From positions 83,861 through 147,860 of the forward strand of contig CALKCX010000003.1 in NCBI GenBank assembly GCA_938083015.1: DNA of 64,000 nucleotides, in the 5' to 3' direction. The DNA comes from an uncultured Candidatus Micrarchaeota archaeon. Its GTDB lineage: Archaea; Micrarchaeota; Micrarchaeia; Anstonellales; J096. Numbering within the stretch: the stretch's first letter is position 1; every line of letters starts with the position of its first letter. The translations under genes were made by a program, and so were the position numbers. The notes beneath the pieces were generated by a model. That model saw nothing but the letters and a program-made list of their open reading frames with translations, was not told where the DNA came from and searched no databases. Below are positions 3,041 to 62,770 of the stretch, one piece after another.

Positions 3041-3061
3041 AACATTAATAGATTAAAACAG

Positions 3062-3067
3062 TTTAAA
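3062..3067. promoter_or_regulatory. Shared TATA-like TTTAAA box for a divergent gene pair
   Basis: Centre is 24.5 nt from the ATG at 3040 (-) and 28.5 nt from the ATG at 3093 (+). Confidence 0.5.
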
Positions 3068-3092
3068 TAACTATGCTGTAATAAATAAATCG

Positions 3093-8525: not shown

Positions 8526-8547
8526 ATTAAGTATTATTAGATAATGC

Positions 8548-8555
8548 TTTTAAAA
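8548..8555. promoter_or_regulatory. Shared palindromic TATA box TTTTAAAA for a divergent pair
   Basis: Centre is 26.5 nt from the ATG at 8525 (-) and 25.5 nt from the ATG at 8577 (+), within a 51-bp intergenic region. Confidence 0.6.
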
Positions 8556-8576
8556 GCATAGAATAATAATAAACAT

Positions 8577-11672: not shown

Positions 11673-11693
11673 ATTTTAAAATTTGTATAAAGC

Positions 11694-11699
11694 TTTAAA
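11694..11699. promoter_or_regulatory. Single shared TTTAAA box for the divergent infB and ftsZ-like genes
   Basis: The 49-bp intergenic region has the box at its centre, 24.5 nt from the ATG at 11672 (-) and 25.5 nt from the ATG at 11722 (+). Confidence 0.6.
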
Positions 11700-11721
11700 T
11701 ATTAGATTTGTTTTATAAAAA

Positions 11722-12669
11722 ATGATGAAAATCTACGTAATAGGTGTAGGGGATGCAGGTCTAAATATAATATCGAGAATGAAATTAAGAAAAATAGATA
11801 ATGTTAAGACCATAGGACTAGGATCTTCTTATAATAGTTTAATGGGAGCATTGGCCGATTATAAGATATTATTACCTACGGATATGACAGGACATGGTGC
11901 TGGAGGGAAACCTGAATTAGGAGAGAGAGCAATGATGATTGCTAAAGACAGAGTATTATCTATAATACAAGATCCTGATTTTATATTCATAGTAGCTGGA
12001 ATGGGAGGTGGTACAGGTACAGGAGCGTCTCCTGCTCTTGCTAAAATGCTATCAGATAAGTTTCCATCTGCAATTATAATAGGTGCAGTAACATATCCAT
12101 TTAGATTTGAGAGAGCTAGATTAAGAATAGCTTCTGCAGGAATTGAAAAATTGATTAAACATGTCCATACTTTGATATTAATAGATAATAATAAACTTTT
12201 AGATTACTATCCGAATATAAGTATTACAAAAGCATTCGAGATGGTGGACAATGTAGTTATAGGTGCAGTAACAGGATTAGTTAGTGTGCTAGTCGAAGAT
12301 TCATTGATAAACGTCGATTTAGCTGATCTTAAAGCGTTGTTATCAAAAGGAGGTCTTGTTATGATAGCTAATGGTTCTGGAAGCGGTGCAGATAGGGTAA
12401 AAAGGGCAATTCAATCAACGATATCGCATCCGTTACTTGATGTAGAATACGAAGGAGCTAAAGGTGCAATAGTCCATCTTACTATATCTCAAGATGTTCA
12501 ACTTGGAGAAGTAATAGAAGTTGCTAATCAACTTACTAAAGGTATAGCTGAAATGGGAGAAGTAAAAATGGGGGTAAGAGTTGACGAGAAGGCAAGAGAA
12601 AGTATAGAGGTGACTTTATTTGTAGTTGGTGTAAAATCTCGGCAATTGTTTGGAGAGCAATATGATTAA
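11722..12669 (+). CDS. ftsZ: FtsZ-family tubulin-like GTPase, divergent paralog
   Basis: 315 aa. GMGGGTGTGASPALA signature, GHGAGGKPELGE and NVDLADLK. The first glycine box has diverged (GVGDAGLN). Confidence 0.8.
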   Translation: MMKIYVIGVGDAGLNIISRMKLRKIDNVKTIGLGSSYNSLMGALADYKILLPTDMTGHGAGGKPELGERAMMIAKDRVLSIIQDPDFIFIVAGMGGGTGTGASPALAKMLSDKFPSAIIIGAVTYPFRFERARLRIASAGIEKLIKHVHTLILIDNNKLLDYYPNISITKAFEMVDNVVIGAVTGLVSVLVEDSLINVDLADLKALLSKGGLVMIANGSGSGADRVKRAIQSTISHPLLDVEYEGAKGAIVHLTISQDVQLGEVIEVANQLTKGIAEMGEVKMGVRVDEKARESIEVTLFVVGVKSRQLFGEQYD

Positions 12670-13852: not shown

Positions 13853-14501
13853 GTATATTGAATTTAGAAGTATACATTTTAATTATTTCCTTATCTTTAG
13901 ATAGTAAAGGCCATACGATAGAATCTATATGTAATGGAGGTACTTCTGTAAGCTTAGCTATTTCATTCCATCTATCTATTTTCCATCCTAATCTTTCAGT
14001 TAATCTTTTAATTCTTGAATCATAAGGTATAGGTATTGACATCGGGTATGGTATAAATTTATTTGTAAAAATCCTGGCCCCATAGCCATACATCTTTACA
14101 GCAAAATATATCGTTTTTCCTTGACTTTGTAATCTTTCTTCTAAGACATGTTTTAGCAATTCCATATTTTCATAATATTCTATACCAAATACATCTTCTT
14201 CTAATTTTTTAAGTCTATTTATTTTTATACTATGATACAATCTATTACCTCGACTTTTGATTAGAAAATTTTCTATATTATCTTCGGGGTTTTCTAAAAA
14301 ATATTTAGCAAATTCTGTCCAATAATCCTCTCCTGTACTGGTAAGTTGATAACAAACTATTGCGTTTTTTACTATCAATGTTAAAGCTCTATCTCTATCG
14401 ATATTCTTTAGCATTTTAAGAGCTAAATACTGTCTATCTATATTTTCTTCTATATATCTTGCACCTTCTATACCTATATCTTTGATAAATTGTTCAATCA
14501 T
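13824..14501 (-). CDS. Archaeal 8-oxoguanine DNA glycosylase/lyase (AGOG family)
   Basis: 225 aa. AIVCYQLTSTGEDYWTEFAKYF, KTIYFAVKMYGYG, IPIPYDSRIKRLT and PPLHIDSIVW match remembered Pyrobaculum AGOG blocks. Confidence 0.85.
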   Translation of the reverse strand: MIEQFIKDIGIEGARYIEENIDRQYLALKMLKNIDRDRALTLIVKNAIVCYQLTSTGEDYWTEFAKYFLENPEDNIENFLIKSRGNRLYHSIKINRLKKLEEDVFGIEYYENMELLKHVLEERLQSQGKTIYFAVKMYGYGARIFTNKFIPYPMSIPIPYDSRIKRLTERLGWKIDRWNEIAKLTEVPPLHIDSIVWPLLSKDKEIIKMYTSKFNIPKSLFSLIN

Positions 14502-16027
14502 ATTCTAACGACTATTCTATTATTACCCATATGTATATCCTTAGGTTCGATTATTAATTCTTTTTCATTGATAATCTGTTTAGGACTTAATACACTTAAA
14601 CCCAATGCTTGTAAATTTTCAATTTCAATTATCAAAGTCTTACCTGTACTATTACTTTTAGATATTGTTTTTACACTATCTTCTTTATCAATAATTTCTA
14701 TATCTTGCATTTCTACTATTTGATCGTAAATCTTTAATCTAAATACTCCTGTTTTAATCATTTCAGCTGTTAATCTTCTAAACGATCGATCAATATTACC
14801 TAATTTATAACCAATATGGCTAACACCTAAAGCATAGAGGTTTTCATAGTATTGCTGCATTCCCAATACTATTTGAATTTCAACATATTTATTAGATTTA
14901 AGCTTAAGATTAACATGTATTGCTTTGTAATTTGAATGTTTTACCTTATATTCTACCTTAACTTTATCTCCCCAATCGTATATTTTAGAATCTGGTGAAT
15001 AACCATGGCATTCAACATCTATATCTTGTATATATATTTGATGATTTTCAAGTATACGTTTAATTTTATCGATTACAATACCTATTCTTTTCTCATCATC
15101 TATTACTATTTTTATTCCGTTTATATCTTTTATAGAATGTCTAATACCTTCAATATCGTCTAAATCAAGTCCTTTTCTCGTAATCTTTTTATGTATACTT
15201 GTTAAGCTCTTCACTCTGGCAGATACCATCTCTACACCGTCTAATTGCTTAATAGATTTTTTAATCGTATTTAATATTTTACTATCTATTGATAATTCTG
15301 CTCTAATTCTCTCTAATTTTTCTTTATCTTCTCCAAAATATTCGTTTTCTATAGCTTCGGCCACACCAATATATCCTGTTTCTTTGTAAAATTCCATAAA
15401 AAAAGATGCTGCCCGATCCCATTTATGTTTATCACTATTTTTTCTCATAGAATATTCTATTGCAAACAGTGCTCCTGCAATAGTTAAAGCTGCTTTTATC
15501 TCTTTCATACTCTCTAATATTTCTTTAAAGGTTTTTTCTGACTCAAATTGCAATTCATTTAAACTAATTGTTCTAATTATAAATTCGGAAAACTGATCGA
15601 TGAAATCTTTAGTATCTTTTACTTTCAAAGATGTTACCATCCATATCGTCAACTTAAAGACATCGCTATATTGAGAGTATTCAGAGAATTGGCCATTTAT
15701 CAAATGTTGAATAGATGTATCTAATATAGCGGCCACTCTAGAATATCTATTATCAAAATCCTGCCTATCCCAATCATGGCCTAATAGTTTACGATAAAAA
15801 GTATACCATGTATAGTAAAAATCTATACCTACATCAATTAAATTCCTAACTTGTATTATAGGATCGCCATTACTACGTAATGGCCAATTCATTCCTATTC
15901 TAACATCTTTCCATACATCATTATAGAATTTACTCATTATTGTTTCTAATACTCTATTCTTAACGCTTTTTCTTGTTTCCATCTCATGATTAAAATTATG
16001 ATCGTATCTATACACCTGATGTTTCAT
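14498..16027 (-). CDS. RelA/SpoT-like (alarmone synthetase fold) domain protein with unknown N- and C-terminal regions
   Basis: 509 aa from the ATG at 16027 (the track uses a TTG at 16030). Motifs SARVKSLTSIHKKITRK, DINGIKIVI, NYKAIHVNL and VEIQIV...H.GYK appear in RelA_SpoT order. ATGA overlap with the AGOG gene. Confidence 0.6.
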   Translation of the reverse strand: MKHQVYRYDHNFNHEMETRKSVKNRVLETIMSKFYNDVWKDVRIGMNWPLRSNGDPIIQVRNLIDVGIDFYYTWYTFYRKLLGHDWDRQDFDNRYSRVAAILDTSIQHLINGQFSEYSQYSDVFKLTIWMVTSLKVKDTKDFIDQFSEFIIRTISLNELQFESEKTFKEILESMKEIKAALTIAGALFAIEYSMRKNSDKHKWDRAASFFMEFYKETGYIGVAEAIENEYFGEDKEKLERIRAELSIDSKILNTIKKSIKQLDGVEMVSARVKSLTSIHKKITRKGLDLDDIEGIRHSIKDINGIKIVIDDEKRIGIVIDKIKRILENHQIYIQDIDVECHGYSPDSKIYDWGDKVKVEYKVKHSNYKAIHVNLKLKSNKYVEIQIVLGMQQYYENLYALGVSHIGYKLGNIDRSFRRLTAEMIKTGVFRLKIYDQIVEMQDIEIIDKEDSVKTISKSNSTGKTLIIEIENLQALGLSVLSPKQIINEKELIIEPKDIHMGNNRIVVRI

Positions 16028-16048
16028 CAATATTAATTATTTAATCTA

Positions 16049-16054
16049 TTTAAA
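16049..16054. promoter_or_regulatory. Shared TTTAAA box for a divergent pair
   Basis: Centre is 24.5 nt from the ATG at 16027 (-) and 21.5 nt from the ATG at 16073 (+). Confidence 0.5.
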
Positions 16055-16072
16055 AGTTTTTACCAATAAAAT

Positions 16073-18656: not shown

Positions 18657-18755
18657 TGCAGGGGGTGGGATTTGAACCCACGCAGCCACAATGGCACCAG
18701 ATATCTCCGCTCTCTCTTGAGTCTGGCCCGTTTGACCAGGCTCCGGCACCCCTGC
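18657..18755 (-). tRNA. tRNA-Leu(CAA) with a 13-nt intron after position 37
   Basis: Cloverleaf folded by hand. Acceptor GCAGGGG/CCCCTGC, anticodon stem CCAGA/TCTGG, loop CT-CAA-G, intron about 18703-18715, long variable arm, T-arm GTGGG-TTCAAAT-CCCAC, discriminator A, no encoded CCA. Confidence 0.85.
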
Positions 18756-18777
18756 TAATCTTAAATTTAACAAAAGT

Positions 18778-18783
18778 TTTAAA
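18778..18783. promoter_or_regulatory. TTTAAA box for tRNA-Leu(CAA), possibly also tfb
   Basis: Centre is 25.5 nt upstream of tRNA position +1 (18755, minus strand) and 37.5 nt from the tfb ATG, which has AAGGTG upstream. Confidence 0.6.
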
Positions 18784-18817
18784 TATCCATATCATAAATA
18801 TTTAAAAAGGTGTTGTT

Positions 18818-19765
18818 ATGACTGATCAGAAACAAGATAAGAGAAGAAATGTTGATGAAGAATCTTTGGTATGTCCTGAATGCGGAAGTACTGATATTGT
18901 AGTTGATCCTGAAACCAATGAATTAGTATGTAGAAATTGTGGTTATGTGATACATGAAGAATTAACTGATTATGGTCCTGAATGGAGAGCTTTTGATCCT
19001 GAACAAAGAACAAGAAGAGCAAGAACAGGTGGACCTTTATCGATAATGAAACCTAACAAAGGATTGACAACAGAAATTGATAGCTCAAATAAAGATAGTC
19101 GAGGTGGTAAGATATCGGCAAAACATCAGAATACTTTAAATAGAATGAGAAAATGGCACAGAAGAATAAGTATGGCCTCGTCTTATGAGAAGAATATGGC
19201 AATGGCTTTACAAGAATTAGAAAAGATGATAGATAGATTACAATTACCTAAGAAGATCGCAGATGAAGCCGCTTACATATATAAGCAGGCCGTAAAGAAG
19301 CAATTAATTCGAGGTAGATTGATTGAAAGTGTAGTAGCTGCAATTATATACGCTGTGTGTAGAATGAATAATATTCCTAAGACACTTGAAGATATAGCTA
19401 ATTTCTCTAATGCAGATAAGAAAGATATAGGTAGAGCTTATAGATTTATAAAAAGAGAATTAGGGTTAAAAATACCTTTGACTACTGCAGAAATATACGT
19501 ACCTAGATTTGCATCTGCATTAGGCCTAGGAGTAGAGGTTCAAGAAAGGGCAAAGGAAATAATTAGAAAGGCCATGGAAAGTTCTATATTATCTGGAAGA
19601 GGGCCTACAGGTATAGCAGCTGCAGCATTATATATAGCAGCTATAGAAAAAGGAGAGAAGAGAACGCAAAAACAAGTTGCTGAACAAGCAGGAGTTACAG
19701 AAGTTACAATAAGAAATAGATATAGAGAATTAAAAGAATTGTTAGGTTTAAATATAGAAGAGTGA
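18818..19765 (+). CDS. tfb: Transcription initiation factor B (TFB/TFIIB)
   Basis: 315 aa. N-terminal zinc ribbon CPECGS...CRNCG, B-reader/linker and two cyclin-fold repeats (e.g. RGRLIESVVAAIIYAVCR, SGRGPTGIAAAALYIA). Confidence 0.95.
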   Translation: MTDQKQDKRRNVDEESLVCPECGSTDIVVDPETNELVCRNCGYVIHEELTDYGPEWRAFDPEQRTRRARTGGPLSIMKPNKGLTTEIDSSNKDSRGGKISAKHQNTLNRMRKWHRRISMASSYEKNMAMALQELEKMIDRLQLPKKIADEAAYIYKQAVKKQLIRGRLIESVVAAIIYAVCRMNNIPKTLEDIANFSNADKKDIGRAYRFIKRELGLKIPLTTAEIYVPRFASALGLGVEVQERAKEIIRKAMESSILSGRGPTGIAAAALYIAAIEKGEKRTQKQVAEQAGVTEVTIRNRYRELKELLGLNIEE

Positions 19766-19766
19766 A

Positions 19767-19852
19767 TGCAGGGGGTGGGATTTGAACCCACGAACCCACA
19801 ATGGGACCAGGTCCTAAACCTGGCGCCTTTGACCAGACTTGGCGACCCCTGC
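19767..19852 (-). tRNA. tRNA-Leu(UAG)
   Basis: Hand-folded. Acceptor GCAGGGG, anticodon stem CCAGG/CCTGG with loop TT-TAG-GA, long variable arm, T-arm GTGGG-TTCAAAT-CCCAC, discriminator A, no CCA. Confidence 0.85.
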
Positions 19853-19874
19853 TCTATTATTTTTAATATACAAC

Positions 19875-19880
19875 TTTAAA
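19875..19880. promoter_or_regulatory. Shared TTTAAA box for tRNA-Leu(UAG) and uppS
   Basis: Centre is 25.5 nt upstream of tRNA +1 (19852, minus) and 28.5 nt upstream of the uppS ATG (19906, plus). Confidence 0.6.
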
Positions 19881-19905
19881 AAAGTATTATCAATATCTAA
19901 TTAGT

Positions 19906-20583: not shown

Positions 20584-21353
20584 AGATAGAAATCGATACA
20601 AAATTGTCTGCTTATGAAAACGCTATTAGATATTTCAATATTGCTAAAGAGCTAAAAAAGAAATTAGAAGGTATGAAAAACGCCTTAACAGAGCTTGATA
20701 AAAAAATAGAAGCTGAAAGAGAGAGATTGAAAAAAGAGGCAGAGATACTTGAAAGTCAAAAGAGAATACTAGTTGAAAAACAATGGTACGAAAGATTTAA
20801 TTGGAGTTTTACATCAACAGGCAAATTGGTATTAATAGGAAGAGATGAGAAACAGAATGAAATATTGGTAAGAAATCATCTTGATCAAAATGACCTATTC
20901 TTTCATGCTAATATAAAAGGAGCAGCTACAGTTATATTAAAAGACGGCAAAGATTCCAATATCTATGAGAAATTAGAAGTAGCTCAATTAGCAGCTAGTT
21001 ATAGTAGAGGATGGAAAGAAAGTATTAGTTATCTAGATGTATATTCTGTAAATAAAGATCAAGTTACTAAAAGCAGTATGGAAGGTTCTCTAGGTACAGG
21101 GGGCTTTCTAATAATTGGAGAAAGAGAATGGTATAAAAATACACCATTAGTATTGAAGATTGGTTTAGATAAAGATAGGTTAATGATAGTCTCTGAATAT
21201 TATAAACGTGATTTAGATAAACCCATATTGTTATCGCCGGGTAATAAATTTAGTAAAGGAGAATTAGCTAAGAGATTATCGAAATATTATAATATTCATC
21301 CTGATGAATTTCTCATGAGATTACCAGCAGGTAGTTATACGATTAGATCTTGA
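20580..21353 (+). CDS. NFACT-R (DUF814) domain protein; short Rqc2/NEMF-like protein lacking the NFACT-N half
   Basis: 257 aa. A coiled-coil N-terminus followed by WYERFNWSFTSTGKLVLIGRDEKQNE...FFHANIKGAATVILK...QLAASYSRGW, the NFACT-R pattern. Confidence 0.8.
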   Translation: MKIEIDTKLSAYENAIRYFNIAKELKKKLEGMKNALTELDKKIEAERERLKKEAEILESQKRILVEKQWYERFNWSFTSTGKLVLIGRDEKQNEILVRNHLDQNDLFFHANIKGAATVILKDGKDSNIYEKLEVAQLAASYSRGWKESISYLDVYSVNKDQVTKSSMEGSLGTGGFLIIGEREWYKNTPLVLKIGLDKDRLMIVSEYYKRDLDKPILLSPGNKFSKGELAKRLSKYYNIHPDEFLMRLPAGSYTIRS

Positions 21354-22524
21354 GCATTTTCTCTCTCCAATATTCTATTTCTAACATATCTTTAAATTCT
21401 ACTAGATCATAACCTAATTTAGATAGTTTAAATCCTTTTGTAGGGTATTTTTTAAAGAACTCTTCAGTAAGTTGTTCAATACTATTTACATATTTTCTAA
21501 CTACGTATAATTTATCTTCTCTAATATACCCTTGTACATCTTTATCTAAATCTACCTTTGGGCCTGGTTGTAATTCTACGTATTTAATATTTGACATAAG
21601 AGGTATTCCTCCAATATACCCGAGATTATTCTTTATTAGTACATGAACATATTCGATAAAAATCCTATTTCTAGCTAAATAATCTCGCCATGCTCTCCCT
21701 ATTCTTCTCAATATTCCATAGGCCTTATCCTCAAGATCATAATCATGTTCAAATATTATTCCAAATTCTCCTTGTCTATTCAATCGCCCTATTTCAAAAT
21801 ATTCTTTACTTGGTTGTTTGAGAAATGCCCTTGCATACAATATAAATCGAGATAGATTGTCTAAAGATACTGCTGCAGCTACATTTCTTGTACCATCTGT
21901 CGGATCGATTACTATTAATTTCTCTTCAAATTCTCTTGACTTTATTCCTTCTATATCTATAATTACGGGCAATTTCCATTTTGATACTTTTTTAAGAAGA
22001 TCTATAAAGTTGTTTCCATAGATAATAAGTAATTCTGTAAGATAACCAGAAAATCCGTTTACGCGATTATCTGCCCCATATAAACCGAGAGTTTTTAGAA
22101 ATAGCTTCAATAATCTTATTTCATCTTTAGTATTTTCATCGGATATCTTAGATATTATATATCTGTAATGTAAAGGCGTTCTATCTACTGCACTGTGATA
22201 ATTTTTTGAAATCGGTACTAAATCGATATTATAATTATCATACCTAATCTTAATATAAGGATGTTCTGAGTATTTGACAATATATTTTATATTTAATTCT
22301 TCCAATCTATTTTTCAATATTTGAAACCCATGATATTTATCGGTTTCTGTTTCATAAAACACATCTAAATCATAATCATCTCTAAGATTTGTACCTTTAG
22401 CTACAGAACCGTATAATTTAAGATCTAGACCTAGCTTATCTTTTAAATCTTGAAATATCTGAATAGCTTTTGAATTATCTGGTCTAATCTTCTGTTTAAG
22501 ATCTAGCAAAAATTCTAGCCCCAT
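21343..22524 (-). CDS. cca: CCA-adding tRNA nucleotidyltransferase (archaeal class I)
   Basis: 393 aa. YGSVAKGTNLRDDYDLDVF catalytic motif. Size is typical of the archaeal CCA enzyme. Confidence 0.85.
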   Translation of the reverse strand: MGLEFLLDLKQKIRPDNSKAIQIFQDLKDKLGLDLKLYGSVAKGTNLRDDYDLDVFYETETDKYHGFQILKNRLEELNIKYIVKYSEHPYIKIRYDNYNIDLVPISKNYHSAVDRTPLHYRYIISKISDENTKDEIRLLKLFLKTLGLYGADNRVNGFSGYLTELLIIYGNNFIDLLKKVSKWKLPVIIDIEGIKSREFEEKLIVIDPTDGTRNVAAAVSLDNLSRFILYARAFLKQPSKEYFEIGRLNRQGEFGIIFEHDYDLEDKAYGILRRIGRAWRDYLARNRIFIEYVHVLIKNNLGYIGGIPLMSNIKYVELQPGPKVDLDKDVQGYIREDKLYVVRKYVNSIEQLTEEFFKKYPTKGFKLSKLGYDLVEFKDMLEIEYWREKMLKI

Positions 22525-23166: not shown

Positions 23167-23670
23167 TTATTTCAATATTTTCTCTTTTAGATTTTCTATA
23201 GTTTCTATAGTTAAAAGTTTTAAATCTGAACCACATCTTGGACATTTAAATTGATAATCTAATGAATCTTCATAGCTATAATATACAATACCTTCTATAG
23301 AACAAGATGGACAATAATACAGTTCTTCTCCGTATTCTAATTTACTAATCAATTGACTAAACATCCCGTATACATTTTCTTGTATATATTCGACCAATGC
23401 ATCAAAATCTATACGCCAATAATATGTAATGTAACCAGTTTCATCTGTAATCTTCTTACAAACAATTACCTTTGCATCTTGCATTCTTATCAAGCTTTTT
23501 TGTAAAGATTTGTAAAAAATTCCAGTATCTTGAGCTATTTGTTCTTCTGATACAAAATCCTTATCTTTAAGATAACCTATTAAAACGATACTATCTTCAC
23601 CGAACTTATCTATGAGTAATCTTCTAACTATGTTTAAACCAAGATAGTTTTCTGTAATTTTATCATTCAT
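23167..23670 (-). CDS. tfe: Transcription factor E alpha (TFE/TFIIE-alpha-like), paralog 2
   Basis: 167 aa. Winged-helix region (EEQIAQDTGIFYKSLQKSLIRM...YYWRIDF) followed by a zinc ribbon YYCPSC...KCPRCGS. Confidence 0.75.
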   Translation of the reverse strand: MNDKITENYLGLNIVRRLLIDKFGEDSIVLIGYLKDKDFVSEEQIAQDTGIFYKSLQKSLIRMQDAKVIVCKKITDETGYITYYWRIDFDALVEYIQENVYGMFSQLISKLEYGEELYYCPSCSIEGIVYYSYEDSLDYQFKCPRCGSDLKLLTIETIENLKEKILK

Positions 23671-24175
23671 ATTTTATTATACTTTCTTTATCTAAAGACT
23701 GTAATTGACTACCACATTCTGAACATCTAAATCCAAGATCAACAGCTTGATCAAAATCATATATTTTTATATCAAATCTACTAGAGCAATGAGGGCAATA
23801 ATATAATTCTTCATGTTCAATTCTTAATCTTAAATCCTCAATCTTACCAAACGTCTTATTTTTAATCCAATCTATAAGATCTTCTATACTAAGATTCCAA
23901 TAAAAGTTATACCAATTAGAGTTATTAGTACTTTCCTTTCGATACATCATGATTTTTTCATCGTACATTTTGTTTAAAACTTCTCTTACCTCTTTATTAC
24001 TTATCTGTAATGTTTTTGCAATTTCATCTTCTTTAAATTCCATTAAATTATTTTCAGTAACATATTTTATAACGGCCAATGCATTATTTCCAAGATTATC
24101 TATAATTATTTTTCTTATATCAGGGTCTTCAAGATACTTATTCAATGTATTTTTAGAATCAGAAAACCAATCCAT
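23663..24175 (-). CDS. tfe: Transcription factor E alpha (TFE/TFIIE-alpha-like), paralog 1
   Basis: 170 aa. Winged helix (EDEIAKTLQISNKEVREVLNKM...FYWNLS) followed by a zinc ribbon YYCPHC...RCSECGS. Overlaps paralog 2 by 8 nt. Confidence 0.75.
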   Translation of the reverse strand: MDWFSDSKNTLNKYLEDPDIRKIIIDNLGNNALAVIKYVTENNLMEFKEDEIAKTLQISNKEVREVLNKMYDEKIMMYRKESTNNSNWYNFYWNLSIEDLIDWIKNKTFGKIEDLRLRIEHEELYYCPHCSSRFDIKIYDFDQAVDLGFRCSECGSQLQSLDKESIIKYE

Positions 24176-32411: not shown

Positions 32412-32482
32412 TGCGGCCACCGGGATTCGAACCCGGGCCTTCAGCTTGGGAAGCTGACATCCTACCACTAGACTATGGCCGC
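32412..32482 (-). tRNA. tRNA-Gly(CCC)
   Basis: Hand-folded. Acceptor GCGGCCA/TGGCCGC, anticodon stem TCAGC/GCTGA with loop TT-CCC-AA, T-arm CCGGG-TTCGAAT-CCCGG, discriminator A, no CCA. Confidence 0.9.
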
Positions 32483-32504
32483 TATGTTTATATGTACGAA
32501 AATC

Positions 32505-32510
32505 TTTAAA
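32505..32510 (-). promoter_or_regulatory. TTTAAA box for tRNA-Gly
   Basis: Centre is 25.5 nt upstream of tRNA +1 (32482). Confidence 0.6.
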
Positions 32511-33578: not shown

Positions 33579-33603
33579 CTCTAACTATGATGTAAAGCTT
33601 AAG

Positions 33604-33609
33604 TTTAAA
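33604..33609. promoter_or_regulatory. Shared TTTAAA box for the divergent DRG and ftsZ operons
   Basis: Centre is 28.5 nt from the ATG at 33578 (-) and 30.5 nt from the ATG at 33637 (+), which is preceded by AGGTGA. Confidence 0.5.
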
Positions 33610-33636
33610 AATATAACTATAGAATAAACATTATAG

Positions 33637-34734
33637 GTGATGATTGTGGCAGATCAAAACACAGACGAGATGATACTTGAAAATGAGGTTAGTAAAGATG
33701 AAGAGGAAATTTTAAAGTTAATAGAACAAGAACAGGAAAAGATAATGGTAATAGGTGCAGGTGGAGGTGGATCGAATACAATTAATAGACTATTTGAATT
33801 TAGACCTGCTAATAATGTTACTTTAATAGCTGCTAATACTGATGCTAGACATTTACTTGGTATAAAAGCTCATAGAAAAATATTAATAGGTCAACAGTTG
33901 ACAAAGGGAAGAGGGTGTGGTAGTAATCCTGAATGTGGAGAGAAAGCTGCTCAAGAAACAGCAGCTAAGATAAAAGAAGCTTTAAATGGTGCCGATTTAA
34001 TATTCTTGACATGTGGTATGGGGGGTGGTACAGGTACAGGAGCATTACCAGTAATAGCAAAGATAGCTAAACAAGACGTAGGTGCTTTAACAGTTGGAGT
34101 AGTCACTTTGCCATTCCAGGCCGAAGGTAAGATTAGAATGGAAAATGCGATATCTGGTATAAAGAAATTAAAACAGAATGTAGATACGTTGATAATAATA
34201 AAGAATGATAAACTTCTAGATATAGCTAAAGATCTTCCTTTAGATAAGGCATTTAAGATAGCTGATGAAGTATTGGCAAGATCTGTTAAGACTATTGCTG
34301 AGATGTCTGTAAAAGCAGGTTTGATAAACGTGGACTTTGCAGATTTGACAACAGTCTTAAAAAATGGAGGGTATGCAGTAATAGCAATAGGAGAATCGGC
34401 ATTAGAAGGAAGTAAAGAAGAAAGGGCAAAATTGGCAATAGAAACAGCATTATCTAATCCTTTATTAGATGTAGATATATCTACTGCAGATAGGGCATTG
34501 ATAAATATTATTGGTGGAGAAGATTTGGTATTACAAGAGGTAAACTATATCGTTGAAGAGACTAGAAAGAGAATTAACCCTAATGCACATATTATCCATG
34601 GTGCTAGAATAGAACCTGATATGAAAAAATCATCTATAAGAGTATTAGTAGTATTAGCAGGCGTTACATTGCCAAATGATTTCTATGAAGATCAACATAA
34701 TATAAAAGATGTTCTTGGAATAGAAAAGATATGA
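33637..34734 (+). CDS. ftsZ: Cell division GTPase FtsZ
   Basis: 365 aa. IGAGGGGSNTINRL, GMGGGTGTGALPVIA and NVDFADL. Conserved archaeal ftsZ-secE-nusG linkage. Confidence 0.95.
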   Translation: MMIVADQNTDEMILENEVSKDEEEILKLIEQEQEKIMVIGAGGGGSNTINRLFEFRPANNVTLIAANTDARHLLGIKAHRKILIGQQLTKGRGCGSNPECGEKAAQETAAKIKEALNGADLIFLTCGMGGGTGTGALPVIAKIAKQDVGALTVGVVTLPFQAEGKIRMENAISGIKKLKQNVDTLIIIKNDKLLDIAKDLPLDKAFKIADEVLARSVKTIAEMSVKAGLINVDFADLTTVLKNGGYAVIAIGESALEGSKEERAKLAIETALSNPLLDVDISTADRALINIIGGEDLVLQEVNYIVEETRKRINPNAHIIHGARIEPDMKKSSIRVLVVLAGVTLPNDFYEDQHNIKDVLGIEKI

Positions 34735-37083: not shown

Positions 37084-37596
37084 ATGGATGATAATCAGAT
37101 AAAAGAAGTTATAGCAAATCTTCATCAACTATTTCAAAATGAAAATACAGATCAATATCCGGTAAAAATAGACGAATCTTTATATAAAAAAGTTCAAAAA
37201 ATAGCAGACGAGTTAAAATACTCTAAAGATATAAATCATGTTCATGCTAGGTATTACAATAATCTATTAGATATTTATGAAAAGCTAATAAATATTAGAA
37301 TTAGAAAGATAATTATAAATGTATTGAACAATAAAGAATTGTTTAGAGATAGATTGACAGAACAAGAATATCAATTATATCAAGATATTAAGAATACGAT
37401 TAATGAACATAAGCTTAGAATGCTTGATCTTGATTTAAATATTAAAATTGAAATAATTGAAGATGTGGATCAATATGTTGATTTAAAAGGTAATAGCAGA
37501 GGTCCTTTTAAGAAAGGTCAGATTATTGAAATAGAGAGAGAAGAAGGAGAATGGTTGATAAATGAGAGAAAAGCTAAAAGAGTAGAAAAATTATAA
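37084..37596 (+). CDS. GINS-like replication factor subunit (tentative)
   Basis: 170 aa. An alpha-helical A-domain-like region (..LINIRIRKIIINVL..LTEQEYQLY..) followed by a small beta C-terminus (GPFKKGQIIEIEREEGEWLINERKAKRV), resembling archaeal GINS. Confidence 0.5.
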   Translation: MDDNQIKEVIANLHQLFQNENTDQYPVKIDESLYKKVQKIADELKYSKDINHVHARYYNNLLDIYEKLINIRIRKIIINVLNNKELFRDRLTEQEYQLYQDIKNTINEHKLRMLDLDLNIKIEIIEDVDQYVDLKGNSRGPFKKGQIIEIEREEGEWLINERKAKRVEKL

Positions 37597-39348
37597 AAAC
37601 ATTACATCATCGTCCGGATGTCTATATAAAGGTTGTTTCAATCTTTTCTGATCTATAACATGACCTATTAGTCCTATTGTTCTTGATAGAACAAACAAAG
37701 CATTTCCGTAACCTAGATTTAACATATTTTCTAAATCAAACCCCTCTTCTTCTAACATATCAAGTAATATTGCAGCTATAGCACCATCAACATTCAATAT
37801 TAATTTTTCCGATTTTTTAAGCATCTCTTTCTCTAATTCAAGAGCATAATTTAGATATTTTTTATATTTAAGATTTTGTTCAGCAAATTTTTTCAACAAT
37901 TCTACTCTTTTATCAGGATTATACTTAGATTTTACCCTATGTCCTATTCCAGGTATGTTCTCACCTTTCTCTTTCATCATATCTATAAACTTCTGCACAG
38001 GTATGTTTTCTTTTACAGCCCAATATATATATCGCATAGCATCGTCTATTGCACCTCCGAATCTAGGACCTATTGTAAGCATTCCAGACGCTACCGAGCT
38101 TACAAGATCTTTTCCTGCTCTAGCAGCTACAATAGAATTATGGGCCCCAGATACATTTGGTCCATGATCTGCTAAAAGAACTAATACGATTTTGATGAAT
38201 TTCTTAAATCTCTCAGATAATCTTGTCTTAAACCATAACAATCCTATTACTTCCTCTATACCTTGATCTATAAGTTCAGATACATGTACACCATTATAGG
38301 CTATTTCCCCATCTATCTCTTTAGATATACTTGAAATTATCGTTGTAGGTCTTCTAACTATTCTCTTTTGAATAGCTATCTTAAAATCAATTGGTAAGGG
38401 ATTGTAAAAACTATCTTGAACTGTTAAACCTAATCTATTCGATATTTTAGAGATTTCGTATTCTATATTTTTAAAACTATCAGGTACTATCACACCGGCA
38501 TCTTTAAGAGCATCCATCTTCTCTTTTGCACCTTCCATCTCAGATCCCATTTTAGCTGCAGCATGCCCAAACTGTACATTCCAAGGAAACAGTTTTGCCG
38601 ATATACCAACAATCCACATTATTAAAGGTTTTGTTATTACTTTTTCTTTTACAAGTTCAGCTAATCTATACTCTTCTTTGCCCCCTATTTCACCTATAGC
38701 TACAATCATCTTTATTTCCGGATCTTGATTCATTCTTAATATATGTTCTAGCATAGTAGATCCAGGAAATACGTCTCCACCTACGGCAACTCCTTCTCTA
38801 GTTCCATTACTATTTCTAGCTACAATTCTAAACATTTCATTTAACAATCCACCACTTCTAGTTACTATACCTACAGAACCTGGTGAATACAATCGACTTT
38901 TAACAATATTATCATAATCTCCGCCTACTACTCCAGCTCTAAGTGCACCAACTGTAATAGCTCCAAATGTAGCTGGTCCAATTATCAATTTTCCCCGAGT
39001 TTTAGCTTTGTATATAAGATCTTTCATATCTCTTTCAGGTACGCCTTCTGCTACAATTACTATTGTTTTTATTGAATCATTATCAAGTAATTCCTTAGTA
39101 GTATTATAAGCAGATCTAAATGAAGATAGATTTATTGCTACATCAGCTTCTATTTGAGATGTTTTATATACCGGTATTAGTATTTCATCCGATCCATAGA
39201 AAAGTTTTTGATATCCAGAATCATTGTGAATAATAGCTTTTATAGATGGAGTTCTGCCTATTATGTAATCATAATCTAATATTCTTTGTATATACTCTGG
39301 TTTATTGTTTATTACAATTACCCTATCTTGTCTACTAAATAACACCAT
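37591..39348 (-). CDS. aclA: ATP-citrate lyase alpha-type subunit (succinyl-CoA synthetase-alpha-like domain fused to a citrate-synthase-like domain)
   Basis: 585 aa. LFSR...ILIPVYK, IVAEGVPE, IIGPATFG, SRLYSPGSVGIVTRSGGLLNEM, GVAVGGDVFPGST, VQFGHAAAK and C-terminal GHRVKSKYNPDKR. Collinear with ACLY/AclA as remembered. Confidence 0.9.
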   Translation of the reverse strand: MVLFSRQDRVIVINNKPEYIQRILDYDYIIGRTPSIKAIIHNDSGYQKLFYGSDEILIPVYKTSQIEADVAINLSSFRSAYNTTKELLDNDSIKTIVIVAEGVPERDMKDLIYKAKTRGKLIIGPATFGAITVGALRAGVVGGDYDNIVKSRLYSPGSVGIVTRSGGLLNEMFRIVARNSNGTREGVAVGGDVFPGSTMLEHILRMNQDPEIKMIVAIGEIGGKEEYRLAELVKEKVITKPLIMWIVGISAKLFPWNVQFGHAAAKMGSEMEGAKEKMDALKDAGVIVPDSFKNIEYEISKISNRLGLTVQDSFYNPLPIDFKIAIQKRIVRRPTTIISSISKEIDGEIAYNGVHVSELIDQGIEEVIGLLWFKTRLSERFKKFIKIVLVLLADHGPNVSGAHNSIVAARAGKDLVSSVASGMLTIGPRFGGAIDDAMRYIYWAVKENIPVQKFIDMMKEKGENIPGIGHRVKSKYNPDKRVELLKKFAEQNLKYKKYLNYALELEKEMLKKSEKLILNVDGAIAAILLDMLEEEGFDLENMLNLGYGNALFVLSRTIGLIGHVIDQKRLKQPLYRHPDDDVMFL

Positions 39349-39377: not shown

Positions 39378-39406
39378 TAATCTAGAATAAATTCATGTTT
39401 TTAAAT

Positions 39407-39412
39407 AAAAAA
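39407..39412 (-). terminator. Oligo-T (T6 on the minus strand) directly after the 23S 3' flanking helix
   Basis: A6 on the plus strand abuts the outermost helix segment (39413-39416). Archaeal termination typically occurs at oligo-T tracts. Confidence 0.4.
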
Positions 39413-39426
39413 TGGCTTCCGATTGG

Positions 39427-42351
<2,925 letters not shown>

Positions 42352-42393
42352 AGCCAACCGGCTAGAGCCATTTTATATATACATAAGAAACCT

Positions 42394-42399
42394 TTTAAA
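42394..42399 (-). promoter_or_regulatory. TTTAAA box for the 23S rRNA transcription unit
   Basis: Centre minus 25.5 nt predicts a TSS at about 42371, the base next to the first paired base of the flanking helix (42370). Confidence 0.55.
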
Positions 42400-43170: not shown

Positions 43171-43172
43171 AA

Positions 43173-43178
43173 TTTAAA
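43173..43178 (+). promoter_or_regulatory. TTTAAA box for pus10
   Basis: Centre is 26.5 nt upstream of the ATG at 43202 and only 5.5 nt from the divergent ATG at 43170. Confidence 0.55.
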
Positions 43179-43192
43179 TAAGCTATACTAGA

Positions 43193-43198
43193 TTTAAA
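43193..43198 (-). promoter_or_regulatory. TTTAAA box for the gene 42403-43170
   Basis: Centre is 25.5 nt upstream of the ATG at 43170 and only 6.5 nt from the divergent ATG at 43202. Confidence 0.55.
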
Positions 43199-43201
43199 AG
43201 C

Positions 43202-47599: not shown

Positions 47600-47623
47600 G
47601 ATCTATTAAAATGAAGTATTATA

Positions 47624-47629
47624 TTTAAA
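47624..47629. promoter_or_regulatory. Shared TTTAAA box for the divergent rpl11 and GGGPS operons
   Basis: Centre is 27.5 nt from the ATG at 47599 (-) and 26.5 nt from the ATG at 47653 (+). Confidence 0.55.
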
Positions 47630-47652
47630 AATATTTAGCAGAATTTAATTCT

Positions 47653-51312: not shown

Positions 51313-51386
51313 CGGGCCCGAGGGGATTCGAACCCCTGACCTATGGGTTAAAAGCCCACCGCTCTACCAGGCTGAGCTACGGGCCC
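51313..51386 (-). tRNA. tRNA-Lys(UUU)
   Basis: Hand-folded. Acceptor GGGCCCG/CGGGCCC, anticodon stem GTGGG/CCCAT with loop CT-TTT-AA, T-arm AGGGG-TTCGAAT-CCCCT, discriminator G, no CCA. Confidence 0.9.
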
Positions 51387-51408: not shown

Positions 51409-51414
51409 TTTAAA
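51409..51414 (-). promoter_or_regulatory. TTTAAA box for tRNA-Lys
   Basis: Centre is 25.5 nt upstream of tRNA +1 (51386). Confidence 0.6.
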
Positions 51415-53261: not shown

Positions 53262-53762
53262 TTATCTATTTACCAATCTAGCTGCTATTACATAACCGAT
53301 ATCAAATAAGATAATTGCATAAAAATCTTCAATATATTTTTCTAATTTTATACCTTCTATAGCGTATATCAATAGAGAAAGTATCATCATTCCTAGTAAG
53401 GCCACATATATTAATATTCTCTCATAACCAAACAATTTTATCTCTTTTTCATCATAATATAAAGCTATTAGATATATTAAAAATGGGGCCAATCTAAAAC
53501 TAGAGTTTTCTCCATAGATTAATGATAAGATCAGGCCTAATATAGCAGCTAAAAAATATAAATTCAAAGTTTTAGTATCAATTTTACCTGCAAAGTATAC
53601 TGCTAGAATAATAGCTAACCCCATGACTAGAAAATGAATTAAATAAATGGTCCATAATATTACAGAAATTAAAATCAATATTTTGGCAATTATATCTAAT
53701 TCTCTATCATCAAGATATTTTGATATAAATCCTAGTAAAAATGCAGAGAGATATTGATACAT
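53262..53762 (-). CDS. Polytopic membrane protein (166 aa), unknown function
   Basis: Hydrophobic ORF. TTTAAA 53784-53789 is centred 24.5 nt upstream of the ATG. Confidence 0.5.
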   Translation of the reverse strand: MYQYLSAFLLGFISKYLDDRELDIIAKILILISVILWTIYLIHFLVMGLAIILAVYFAGKIDTKTLNLYFLAAILGLILSLIYGENSSFRLAPFLIYLIALYYDEKEIKLFGYERILIYVALLGMMILSLLIYAIEGIKLEKYIEDFYAIILFDIGYVIAARLVNR

Positions 53763-53769
53763 ATATTAT

Positions 53770-53775
53770 TTTAAA
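53770..53775 (+). promoter_or_regulatory. TTTAAA box for tRNA-Cys
   Basis: Centre is 24.5 nt upstream of tRNA +1 (53797). Crosses the divergent promoter at 53784-53789. Confidence 0.55.
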
Positions 53776-53783
53776 GATAACAT

Positions 53784-53789
53784 TTTAAA
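53784..53789 (-). promoter_or_regulatory. TTTAAA box for the membrane protein gene 53262-53762
   Basis: Centre is 24.5 nt upstream of the ATG at 53762. Confidence 0.5.
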
Positions 53790-53796
53790 TAACAAT

Positions 53797-53888
53797 GCCG
53801 GGTTGGCGGAGCGGCTACGCAACCGGCTGCAGATAGCTCCAGTTATAGTAGAAACCGGTGTAGGTGGGTTCGACTCCCACACCCGGCT
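53797..53888 (+). tRNA. tRNA-Cys(GCA) with a ~21-nt intron after position 37
   Basis: Hand-folded. Acceptor GCCGGGT/ACCCGGC, anticodon stem ACCGG/CCGGT, loop CT-GCA-G, intron about 53833-53853, T-arm GTGGG-TTCGACT-CCCAC. Discriminator U fits tRNA-Cys identity. No CCA. Confidence 0.75.
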
Positions 53889-54158: not shown

Positions 54159-54164
54159 TTTAAA
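54159..54164 (-). promoter_or_regulatory. TTTAAA box for the aEF-1beta gene
   Basis: Centre is 26.5 nt upstream of the ATG at 54135. Confidence 0.5.
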
Positions 54165-55443
54165 TAATTTTGTCTATCCATTGTCTTATCATTGTTTCTA
54201 AATATCTTAATATGTTTTTAAATTGAGTTTCATAATTATCTCCTTCTATTTCAAATTCATCTAGACGTTTAATATCACCGTTTTCTAAACTAACCGGACT
54301 ATAGATTCTAACATATTTACTACCAGCAATATGTTTAATTATTTTCTCTCTTAAACCTATTGTGTGTTCACTACCTTTCTCTCCTTCTATCCCTTCTATT
54401 ACGATTATCTTATCATATTTCTTTGCCTCTTCTTCATTCTCAGATAACCATCTTTTAAATTGATCTTTATCTATAAGCTGTTCTGAATCTTTTACAGGTT
54501 TTATCATTTCACCTTCAAAAACTGCAAATGGAAACGTAAAATAAATAGAAGCACTTTTAATATTTTTAATCAATTCTTCTCTATCAATAGGTCGTTTATA
54601 ATATGGTCTGCCCAGGCCAGTATAGGTTCTTACTACTTTTACCTTATCTTTATCTGTGAACATATATCGAACACCATTGTAATATTCTCCTTGATAAGGT
54701 ATTGTAAATGGAAGATAATCTAGACTAGGATTATACCCTATTGCATAAAAGAATGATAACACATGTTCTAATTTTGAAGCTAATCTTGACCTTGCTTGTT
54801 TCAAATCACCAGACAATAAACTAAGAATTAAATCAGGATTTGTCTCTAATCTAGGACCTTGATCATATTGTATATCTACTCTTTCTATTCCAAATACTTT
54901 TTCAAGATGTTTTATTAATAAAACGGTATTTTGATTTGCATTTCCAAATTCCATTCCTAAATTTTCACTTCTTATTGGACTATCATGACTAAGAATTTGT
55001 AATTTTCCCATATGATTGTAAGCCGATATAATTTCATTCGAGTTTCCGTTTATCGTATACTTAGTTTGAGTTAGCTTTAAATACGCTTCAAATATGGATA
55101 ATAGAACTGTTAATTTTATTATCGATTCTTCATTCAAACTCATTTCATGAAATATTTTTGCAATATCTTCTCTATTCAATATCGGACTTTCTCGATATCT
55201 CTCTTCATATTTTCTCTCAAAACTCTCTGGTATATGATATTGATTAGCGCTAGTAAAGTATTGAACACCAAATCTTATAATTACCTGATGTTCTCTTCTT
55301 AAACGATCAGCTATTAATAAGGAAGTGGCAACATTTAAAAAGGCACTATCAACATAAGCTATACGTCTCGGGCTTGGATCGTCTGTTTTTTCTATTACTG
55401 GAAAGCCTGCTCCTCCTTCAGATATTATCAATATCTTGCCCAT
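54160..55443 (-). CDS. Hypothetical protein (427 aa)
   Basis: Long uninterrupted ORF. N-terminus MGKILIISEGGAGFPVI. No family recognised. Confidence 0.6.
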   Translation of the reverse strand: MGKILIISEGGAGFPVIEKTDDPSPRRIAYVDSAFLNVATSLLIADRLRREHQVIIRFGVQYFTSANQYHIPESFERKYEERYRESPILNREDIAKIFHEMSLNEESIIKLTVLLSIFEAYLKLTQTKYTINGNSNEIISAYNHMGKLQILSHDSPIRSENLGMEFGNANQNTVLLIKHLEKVFGIERVDIQYDQGPRLETNPDLILSLLSGDLKQARSRLASKLEHVLSFFYAIGYNPSLDYLPFTIPYQGEYYNGVRYMFTDKDKVKVVRTYTGLGRPYYKRPIDREELIKNIKSASIYFTFPFAVFEGEMIKPVKDSEQLIDKDQFKRWLSENEEEAKKYDKIIVIEGIEGEKGSEHTIGLREKIIKHIAGSKYVRIYSPVSLENGDIKRLDEFEIEGDNYETQFKNILRYLETMIRQWIDKII

Positions 55444-62658: not shown

Positions 62659-62743
62659 CGCCGAGGGTGGGATTTGAACCCACAAACCCTTACGGGAACC
62701 AGCTCTCCAGGCTGGCGCGTTGACCTGGTTCCGCCACCTCGGC
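62659..62743 (-). tRNA. tRNA-Ser(GGA)
   Basis: Hand-folded. Acceptor GCCGAGG/CCTCGGC, anticodon stem CCAGC/GCTGG with loop CT-GGA-GA, long variable arm, T-arm GTGGG-TTCAAAT-CCCAC, discriminator G, no CCA. Confidence 0.85.
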
Positions 62744-62764: not shown

Positions 62765-62770
62765 TTTAAA
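62765..62770 (-). promoter_or_regulatory. TTTAAA box for tRNA-Ser
   Basis: Centre is 24.5 nt upstream of tRNA +1 (62743). Overlaps the stop codon of the TrkA-like gene. Confidence 0.5.

Follow-up and report, generated by a model that had tools for sequence, protein, structure and literature searches.

RNase P is almost universal. Leaderless tRNA genes were reportedly described in Nanoarchaeum equitans by Randau, Schroder and Soll in 2008. In this archaeon tRNA-Tyr, tRNA-His and initiator tRNA-Met carry an extra purine at position -1. N. equitans has been described as the one known organism that lacks RNase P (PMC3491384); a box A of sequence TTTAAA lies 26 nt upstream of its tRNAs and RNA-seq demonstrated that tRNA leaders are absent (PMC3491384, PMC10100707). 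The order of events proposed for N. equitans is that genome shrinkage removed the tRNA leaders first and that loss of RNase P came afterwards (PMC2614490). At least one gene for a subunit of ribonucleoprotein RNase P is present in every archaeal genome surveyed, DPANN included (PMC6380272). The nanoarchaeote Nst1 from Obsidian Pool, which has a reduced DPANN genome and is related to the leaderless-tRNA lineage, keeps a shortened RNase P RNA together with three protein subunits (PMC3655853), so that RNase P status can vary even between close relatives. Thermoproteaceae (Pyrobaculum) have a type T RNase P with a shortened RNA and Rpp21 lost, according to work cited in PMC4919917. Among archaeal mRNAs, 72% of those of Haloferax volcanii are leaderless (PMC4983044), and the TATA-to-start-site distance in Thermococcus kodakarensis was measured at approximately 23 bp (PMC4247193).

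Here we describe a 64-kb stretch of archaeal DNA, referred to throughout as the window, in which a TTTAAA hexamer is found at a near-constant distance upstream of each of six tRNA genes. As in N. equitans, the hexamer sits at a fixed distance of approximately 26 nt from the 5' end of the tRNA, the first base of the six tRNAs is a purine, each tRNA gene has its own promoter and the genome is that of a tiny, AT-rich, compact DPANN archaeon. The two systems differ in phylum, N. equitans belonging to the Nanoarchaeota and the present host to the Micrarchaeota near Anstonellales, and in that N. equitans has split tRNA genes whereas none was seen among the six examined here. In N. equitans the absence of RNase P and the 5'-triphosphate tRNA ends have been demonstrated and the pattern covers all of its tRNAs, whereas here promoter placement alone was read from the sequence, for six tRNAs. 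The original prediction had named N. equitans as precedent, and this stands with respect to promoter placement, but as an analogy rather than a relationship given that the host is not a nanoarchaeon. In H. volcanii some tRNA genes belong to operons or lie within rRNA units, and a leader of 300 nt occurs; by comparison, the window would extend the leaderless rule to tRNAs and to the 23S rRNA precursor. We place the probability that the six tRNA genes have precise leaderless-type initiation, with one box-to-start rule for everything transcribed, at about 0.65.

The host organism

By homology, the host is a Micrarchaeota (DPANN) archaeon near the order Anstonellales, compact and with a GC content of 30%. 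The closest homologues of the window TFB were two Logan sequences (94% and 88% identity), with the nearest named homologues found in a Candidatus Anstonellales archaeon (77%) and a Candidatus Micrarchaeota archaeon (74%), and a ribonucleotide reductase search agreed with this placement. Window proteins also matched Logan run ERR9287632. Housekeeping genes present in the window include those for HMG-CoA reductase, a PcrB-family protein, a prenyltransferase, ribosomal proteins and aminoacyl-tRNA synthetases. N. equitans itself, suggested as the source by the 30% GC content and the TTTAAA boxes, was rejected because the nearest named homologues were from Anstonellales and Micrarchaeota and because lipid-pathway genes are encoded. 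A claim of hyperthermophily was also dropped, as the GC content of the 23S rRNA is merely 53.5%.

Several protein-coding genes of the window deserve mention in their own right (Table 1). FtsZ is encoded by two paralogues. The protein with a RelA/SpoT nucleotidyltransferase region, which is unusual in archaea, is fast-evolving, with 51% identity to the sister species against an average of approximately 78%. A fusion of a CoA-ligase with a citrate-synthase C-terminal domain resembles ATP-citrate lyase or citryl-CoA lyase and is encoded in an otherwise reduced genome. Finally, a 427-aa protein lacking a Pfam match is clade-restricted, with 8 homologues among 5.8 billion proteins, and its place between CorA and aEF-1beta is conserved.

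tRNA genes and their TTTAAA boxes

Six tRNA genes were identified in the window as the union of five Rfam and five ARAGORN predictions, and all six were recovered by ARAGORN when introns were permitted. The mature +1 position of each was confirmed by acceptor-stem pairing, inspected by eye. For tRNA-Ser the ARAGORN call was one base longer at the 5' end, and Rfam together with acceptor pairing placed +1 at 62743. With the acceptor stems checked, all six tRNAs begin with G, as had been claimed; tRNA-Tyr, tRNA-His and initiator tRNA-Met are absent from the window. CCA is encoded in none of the six genes, consistent with the presence in the window of a gene for the CCA-adding enzyme. The introns of tRNA-Cys(GCA) (approximately 21 nt) and tRNA-Leu(CAA) (approximately 13 nt) vary among close relatives, with identical exons. 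A GC-island scan of the 30%-GC window returned the six tRNAs and the 23S rRNA and nothing else, indicating that no tRNA or other GC-rich structured RNA had been overlooked, and no further tRNA was found in flanks of 4.3 kb and 4.6 kb taken from ERR9287632 contigs. These six tRNAs are a sample of the roughly 40 or more expected per genome.

Table 1. Features of the 64-kb window. Gap counts the bases that separate the final A of TTTAAA from the start named under Details.
Feature	Position	Strand	Gap (nt)	Details
tRNA-Leu(CAA)	18657-18755	-		Intron-containing, 5' G, CCA not encoded; Rfam/ARAGORN
TTTAAA (TATA/box A) of tRNA-Leu(CAA)	18778-18783	-	22	tRNA +1
tRNA-Leu(UAG)	19767-19852	-		
TTTAAA of tRNA-Leu(UAG)	19875-19880	-	22	tRNA +1
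tRNA-Gly(CCC)	32412-32482	-		
TTTAAA of tRNA-Gly	32505-32510	-	22	tRNA +1
tRNA-Lys(UUU)	51313-51386	-		
TTTAAA of tRNA-Lys	51409-51414	-	22	tRNA +1
tRNA-Cys(GCA)	53797-53888	+		Intron-containing; ARAGORN only, missed by Rfam tRNA model
TTTAAA of tRNA-Cys	53770-53775	+	21	tRNA +1
tRNA-Ser(GGA)	62659-62743	-		Rfam
TTTAAA of tRNA-Ser	62765-62770	-	21	tRNA +1
23S rRNA	39443-42335	-		Rfam; flanking processing stem 39401..42371 (lower coordinate approximate)
TTTAAA of stand-alone 23S rRNA unit	42394-42399	-	22	First processing-stem base, 42371
TFB gene	18818-19765	+		Basal transcription factor setting start-site distance; between the two tRNA-Leu genes
TFE-alpha gene 1	23167-23670	-		Tandem paralogue
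TFE-alpha gene 2	23663-24175	-		Tandem paralogue
CCA-adding enzyme gene	21343-22524	-		
FtsZ paralogue	11722-12669			
FtsZ paralogue	33637-34734			
RelA/SpoT-region protein	14498-16030	-		510 aa
CoA-ligase/citrate-synthase fusion	37591-39348	-		585 aa
Protein without Pfam match	54160-55443	-		427 aa

Each tRNA gene has its own TTTAAA box, none being arranged in tandem with another or located inside the 23S rRNA unit. From the final A of the box to tRNA +1 the gap is 22 nt for four genes and 21 nt for two, equivalent to box-centre distances of 25.5 nt (four genes) and 24.5 nt (two genes). Motif search, Rfam and ARAGORN reproduced the predicted box and tRNA coordinates, and these spacings, at every position. 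TTTAAA is not enriched overall, with 119 copies in 64 kb against 102.5 expected; 0.4% of G positions have a TTTAAA at either offset, and the probability of finding all six by chance is approximately 3e-15. No clear common motif resembling a BRE, the purine-rich element next to the TATA box that sets promoter direction, was apparent in the 7-8 nt upstream of the six tRNA boxes, a point against the promoter reading.

A number of the boxes are placed in close contact with neighbouring genes. That of tRNA-Leu(CAA) is palindromic and is also 34 nt from the start codon of the divergent TFB gene, and that of tRNA-Leu(UAG) is 25 nt from the start codon of a divergent prenyltransferase gene (Pfam Prenyltransf, undecaprenyl-diphosphate-synthase family). 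The tRNA-Cys box is interleaved with a second box (53784-53789) located 21 nt from a divergent gene starting at 53762. The tRNA-Gly box immediately adjoins the stop codon of an upstream GTPase gene (MMR_HSR1/TGS domains) and the tRNA-Ser box overlaps the TAA stop codon of an upstream TrkA-like gene. Such contacts with stop codons favour an alternative reading in which the arrangement is a by-product of genome streamlining in an organism with normal RNase P, promoters being packed, leaders being as short as 0-3 nt and still removed by a conventional enzyme that also processes the other tRNAs, and the exact spacing having no special meaning. This is a serious alternative, although its likelihood falls somewhat below an even chance.

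One box-to-start distance across the window

The spacing is not confined to tRNA genes. Among ORFs with a minimum length of 80-100 aa, the distance from TTTAAA to ATG in the window peaks sharply at 21-23 nt, which is the signature of leaderless mRNAs starting at ATG and bears out the earlier claim that start codons have a similar spacing. Start-codon gaps spread over 18-25 nt, reflecting either some flexibility of initiation or untranslated leaders of 0-4 nt. The stand-alone 23S rRNA unit also has a TTTAAA box, and its 22-nt gap to the first base of the processing stem agrees with the 25.5 nt stated earlier from box to flanking helix. TTTAAA in the window is therefore placed as an archaeal TATA box would be, preceding tRNA +1, the 23S stem and the start codons of leaderless genes by 21-23 nt. 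Because the gap to tRNA +1 matches those to leaderless start codons (21-23 nt) and to the 23S stem (22 nt), box placement makes tRNA +1, to within 1 nt, the most likely start of transcription at the six tRNA genes. That the same spacing is seen at protein genes is equally what streamlining would produce.

The 23S rRNA gene stands alone, with 16S, 5S and tRNA genes not nearby, and forms a minimal transcription unit comprising the box, a gap of 22 nt, the long processing stem and a T-run into which the 3' arm of the stem runs directly. An isolated 16S gene was seen in a relative (L066 15518-17004), beside the L1-L10-L12 operon and tRNA-Lys. Genes for TFB and two TFE-alpha paralogues are present in the window (Table 1), and no TBP gene was found within its 64 kb.

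Many of the TTTAAA boxes are palindromes that seem to act in both directions. Eight spacers of 42-62 bp between divergent gene pairs (3041-3092, 8526-8576, 11673-11721, 16031-16072, 18756-18817, 19853-19905, 33579-33636 and 47600-47652) contain a palindromic TTTAAA 18-27 nt from both starts (34 nt for TFB), two of them with a second, off-position copy; an example of such a shared box is ATGCTTTTAAAAGCAT at 8545-8560. At these pairs one TATA box apparently drives leaderless transcription both ways. Two shorter divergent spacers, 43171-43201 (31 bp) and 53763-53796 (34 bp), contain two TTTAAA boxes each, every box being 21-23 nt from the far gene such that the promoters are interleaved and cross. 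Single boxes shared by two genes across spacers of approximately 50 bp, and interleaved promoters in spacers of 31-34 bp, are further points in favour of streamlining.

Comparison with related organisms

Syntenic loci from four relatives were compared with the window, percentages being mean amino-acid identity to the window: a sister organism in SRR23854656 (approximately 77% over 25 matches, or approximately 78% without one paralogous FtsZ match), an organism in SRR23854657 (approximately 67% over all 13 matches), Anstonellales genomes (approximately 62%) and GCA_026414465.1 (approximately 59%). Three metagenome contigs, the three loci returned by a search for a tRNA-Lys 42-mer identical to that of the window, were added; a metagenome scan with ribosomal protein L10 gave no match. 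A 122-bp stretch of the TFB gene that is 98% identical to the window (L051 2-123 against window 19601-19722) lies at one end of a contig (43% GC, from a metagenome-assembled genome) that is unrelated in other respects; it is probably an assembly chimera and was left out of the comparison. TFB matches among species-representative genomes came from Micrarchaeota (up to 60% identity) and Thermoplasmatota; no fixed box was seen upstream of tRNA-Glu and other tRNAs in these matches, which are too distant to serve as good controls.

At protein genes of the relatives, too, the distance from TTTAAA to ATG has its peak at 21-24 nt. For tRNAs that are orthologous or near-identical to those of the window, the gap ranges over 19-31 nt overall and 24-26 nt in the closest relatives. 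Individual values are 26 and 24 nt for tRNA-Leu(CAA), 25 nt for tRNA-Leu(UAG), 21 nt (sister organism, locus L065) and 23 nt for tRNA-Cys, 26, 31, 24 and 19 nt for tRNA-Lys with one further gene lacking a box, and approximately 25 nt (degenerate box) and 25 nt for tRNA-Ser. A gap of 21-22 nt is found at 6/6 window tRNAs and 1/12 in relatives (Fisher p = 3.8e-4), and gap variance amounts to 0.27 for the window and 9.3 for relatives. Across these loci the tight spacing of 21-22 nt is therefore a derived, lineage-specific feature that looks selected, and this lineage specificity makes the six-tRNA observation stronger. Since the spacing is not common to the sister species, the trait must be recent or partly coincidental.

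Simple coincidence, with leaders short but normally distributed and the six tRNAs all drawn from the lower tail, is favoured by the small sample and on the 21-nt gap that the sister tRNA-Cys at L065 also has, but the Fisher test and the difference in variance count against it and we regard it as very improbable. In the tRNA-Cys spacer the window and sister sequences differ by two offsetting 1-nt indels that leave the gap at 21 nt. For streamlining the comparison cuts both ways. The wide range of gaps in relatives and the tRNA-Lys without a box imply short leaders and, evidently, 5' processing in their clade, in line with a normal RNase P, yet compaction alone predicts the spread seen in these relatives and not 6/6 genes within 21-22 nt.

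The tRNA-Lys locus is also informative in this respect. The sister tRNA-Lys (SRR23854656) is identical in sequence to that of the window but has no TTTAAA box, and begins 36 nt past the L12 stop codon (L065 12487-12522), just behind a run of seven T residues. Its transcription together with the L1-L10-L12 operon is possible and would make 5' processing necessary. In the window the spacer after the L12 stop codon is 75 nt and consists of T-runs followed by a clean TTTAAA box. A longer spacer with a box in the window, against a shorter one without a box in the sister, is the opposite of compaction. Packing with RNase P retained thus explains the shared promoter architecture but not the uniform gap of 21-22 nt or the lengthened tRNA-Lys spacer.

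Search for RNase P components

RNase P RNA was not detected in the 64-kb window at the Rfam gathering threshold or at E <= 1, nor at Rfam gathering thresholds in 113 kb comprising flanks and the loci of relatives. Pop5, Rpp21, Rpp29, Rpp30 and HARP were not found among window proteins using Pfam, with ten unannotated proteins searched at E <= 1. No RNase P family was identified by NCBIfam among 10 unannotated proteins of two relatives' loci (L056 and L066), these proteins including NAC, L18e and a phosphomevalonate-kinase-like protein. For the host itself the search reached approximately 73 kb (the window, which is part of a 175-kb contig, plus approximately 9 kb of flanks), making it a weak test of low power. 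In the literature searched, no paper connected leaderless tRNAs or loss of RNase P with Micrarchaeota or DPANN.

These results bear on the most far-reaching reading of the window, a full N. equitans-like state in which RNase P has been lost or is being lost and all tRNAs are leaderless with 5' triphosphates. Neither RNase P RNA nor RNase P protein families were encountered in the window, which contains no other GC-rich RNA island, but with approximately 73 kb of a single organism searched the expected chance of meeting an RNase P gene was low. The strict spacing of all six tRNAs, derived relative to every relative sampled, their initial G residues and their individual promoters would fit such a state, as would the leaderless-first, loss-later order proposed for N. 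equitans (PMC2614490). Against it, a sister with gaps of 25-26 nt and a box-less tRNA-Lys means that any loss would have to be very recent. The tRNAs that would be diagnostic, those for Tyr, His and initiator Met, lie outside the window, and the prior is very low with N. equitans the only known case (PMC3491384). The presence of RNase P subunit genes in all archaeal genomes surveyed, DPANN included (PMC6380272), favours instead a streamlined genome with RNase P retained. On balance the full N. equitans-like state appears unlikely.

Discussion

The data presented here point to precise leaderless-type initiation at six tRNA genes of a Micrarchaeota archaeon. In the mechanism proposed, TBP and TFB bound to TTTAAA would place RNA polymerase to start 22-23 bases downstream, on the G that forms position +1 of the mature tRNA or within one base of it. 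Primary tRNA transcripts would then have a 5' triphosphate and a leader that is absent or at most 1 nucleotide long. Maturation would then be limited to intron removal (Leu-CAA and Cys), trimming of the 3' end and addition of CCA, with RNase P unnecessary for these six tRNAs if the start site is as proposed. The same box-to-start rule would operate at leaderless protein genes, at the 23S rRNA unit and at the palindromic boxes shared by divergent genes. In the four tRNAs with a 22-nt gap a purine occupies position -1 (A in three, G in the fourth), and initiation at -1 with a 1-nt leader is therefore equally possible for these. A start at +1 fits both the distance of approximately 23 bp in T. 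kodakarensis and the arrangement in N. equitans, which supports leaderless transcripts. The original prediction of leaderless tRNA transcripts thus gains support, at the level of box placement, from gaps that match those at start codons, at the 23S stem and in published archaeal systems.

The exact spacing of 21-22 nt, as a derived feature of this lineage, points to selection for precise leaderless initiation. On the evidence of promoter sequence, the window is a real instance of tRNA promoter placement of the N. equitans type in another phylum, probably arisen by convergence. It is improbable, although worth stating, that this represents a second, convergent RNase P-free life, with all tRNAs leaderless, the enzyme lost or being lost and the transition caught between congeneric sisters. 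The Thermoproteaceae, in which tRNA 5' processing is reduced and not abolished, offer by analogy a possible intermediate model for the host.

The window shows what would be the first step of the proposed route to RNase P loss in an unrelated DPANN phylum, and the existence of sister lineages without that step makes the transition datable and dissectable from few genomes. Should the host possess RNase P, it would show that promoters can be placed strictly for leaderless tRNAs before the enzyme is lost. Should the remainder of the genome agree with the window, RNase P-independent tRNA synthesis would be a recurrent result of genome reduction and not a one-off, and this organism would provide a second natural system of 5'-triphosphate tRNAs.
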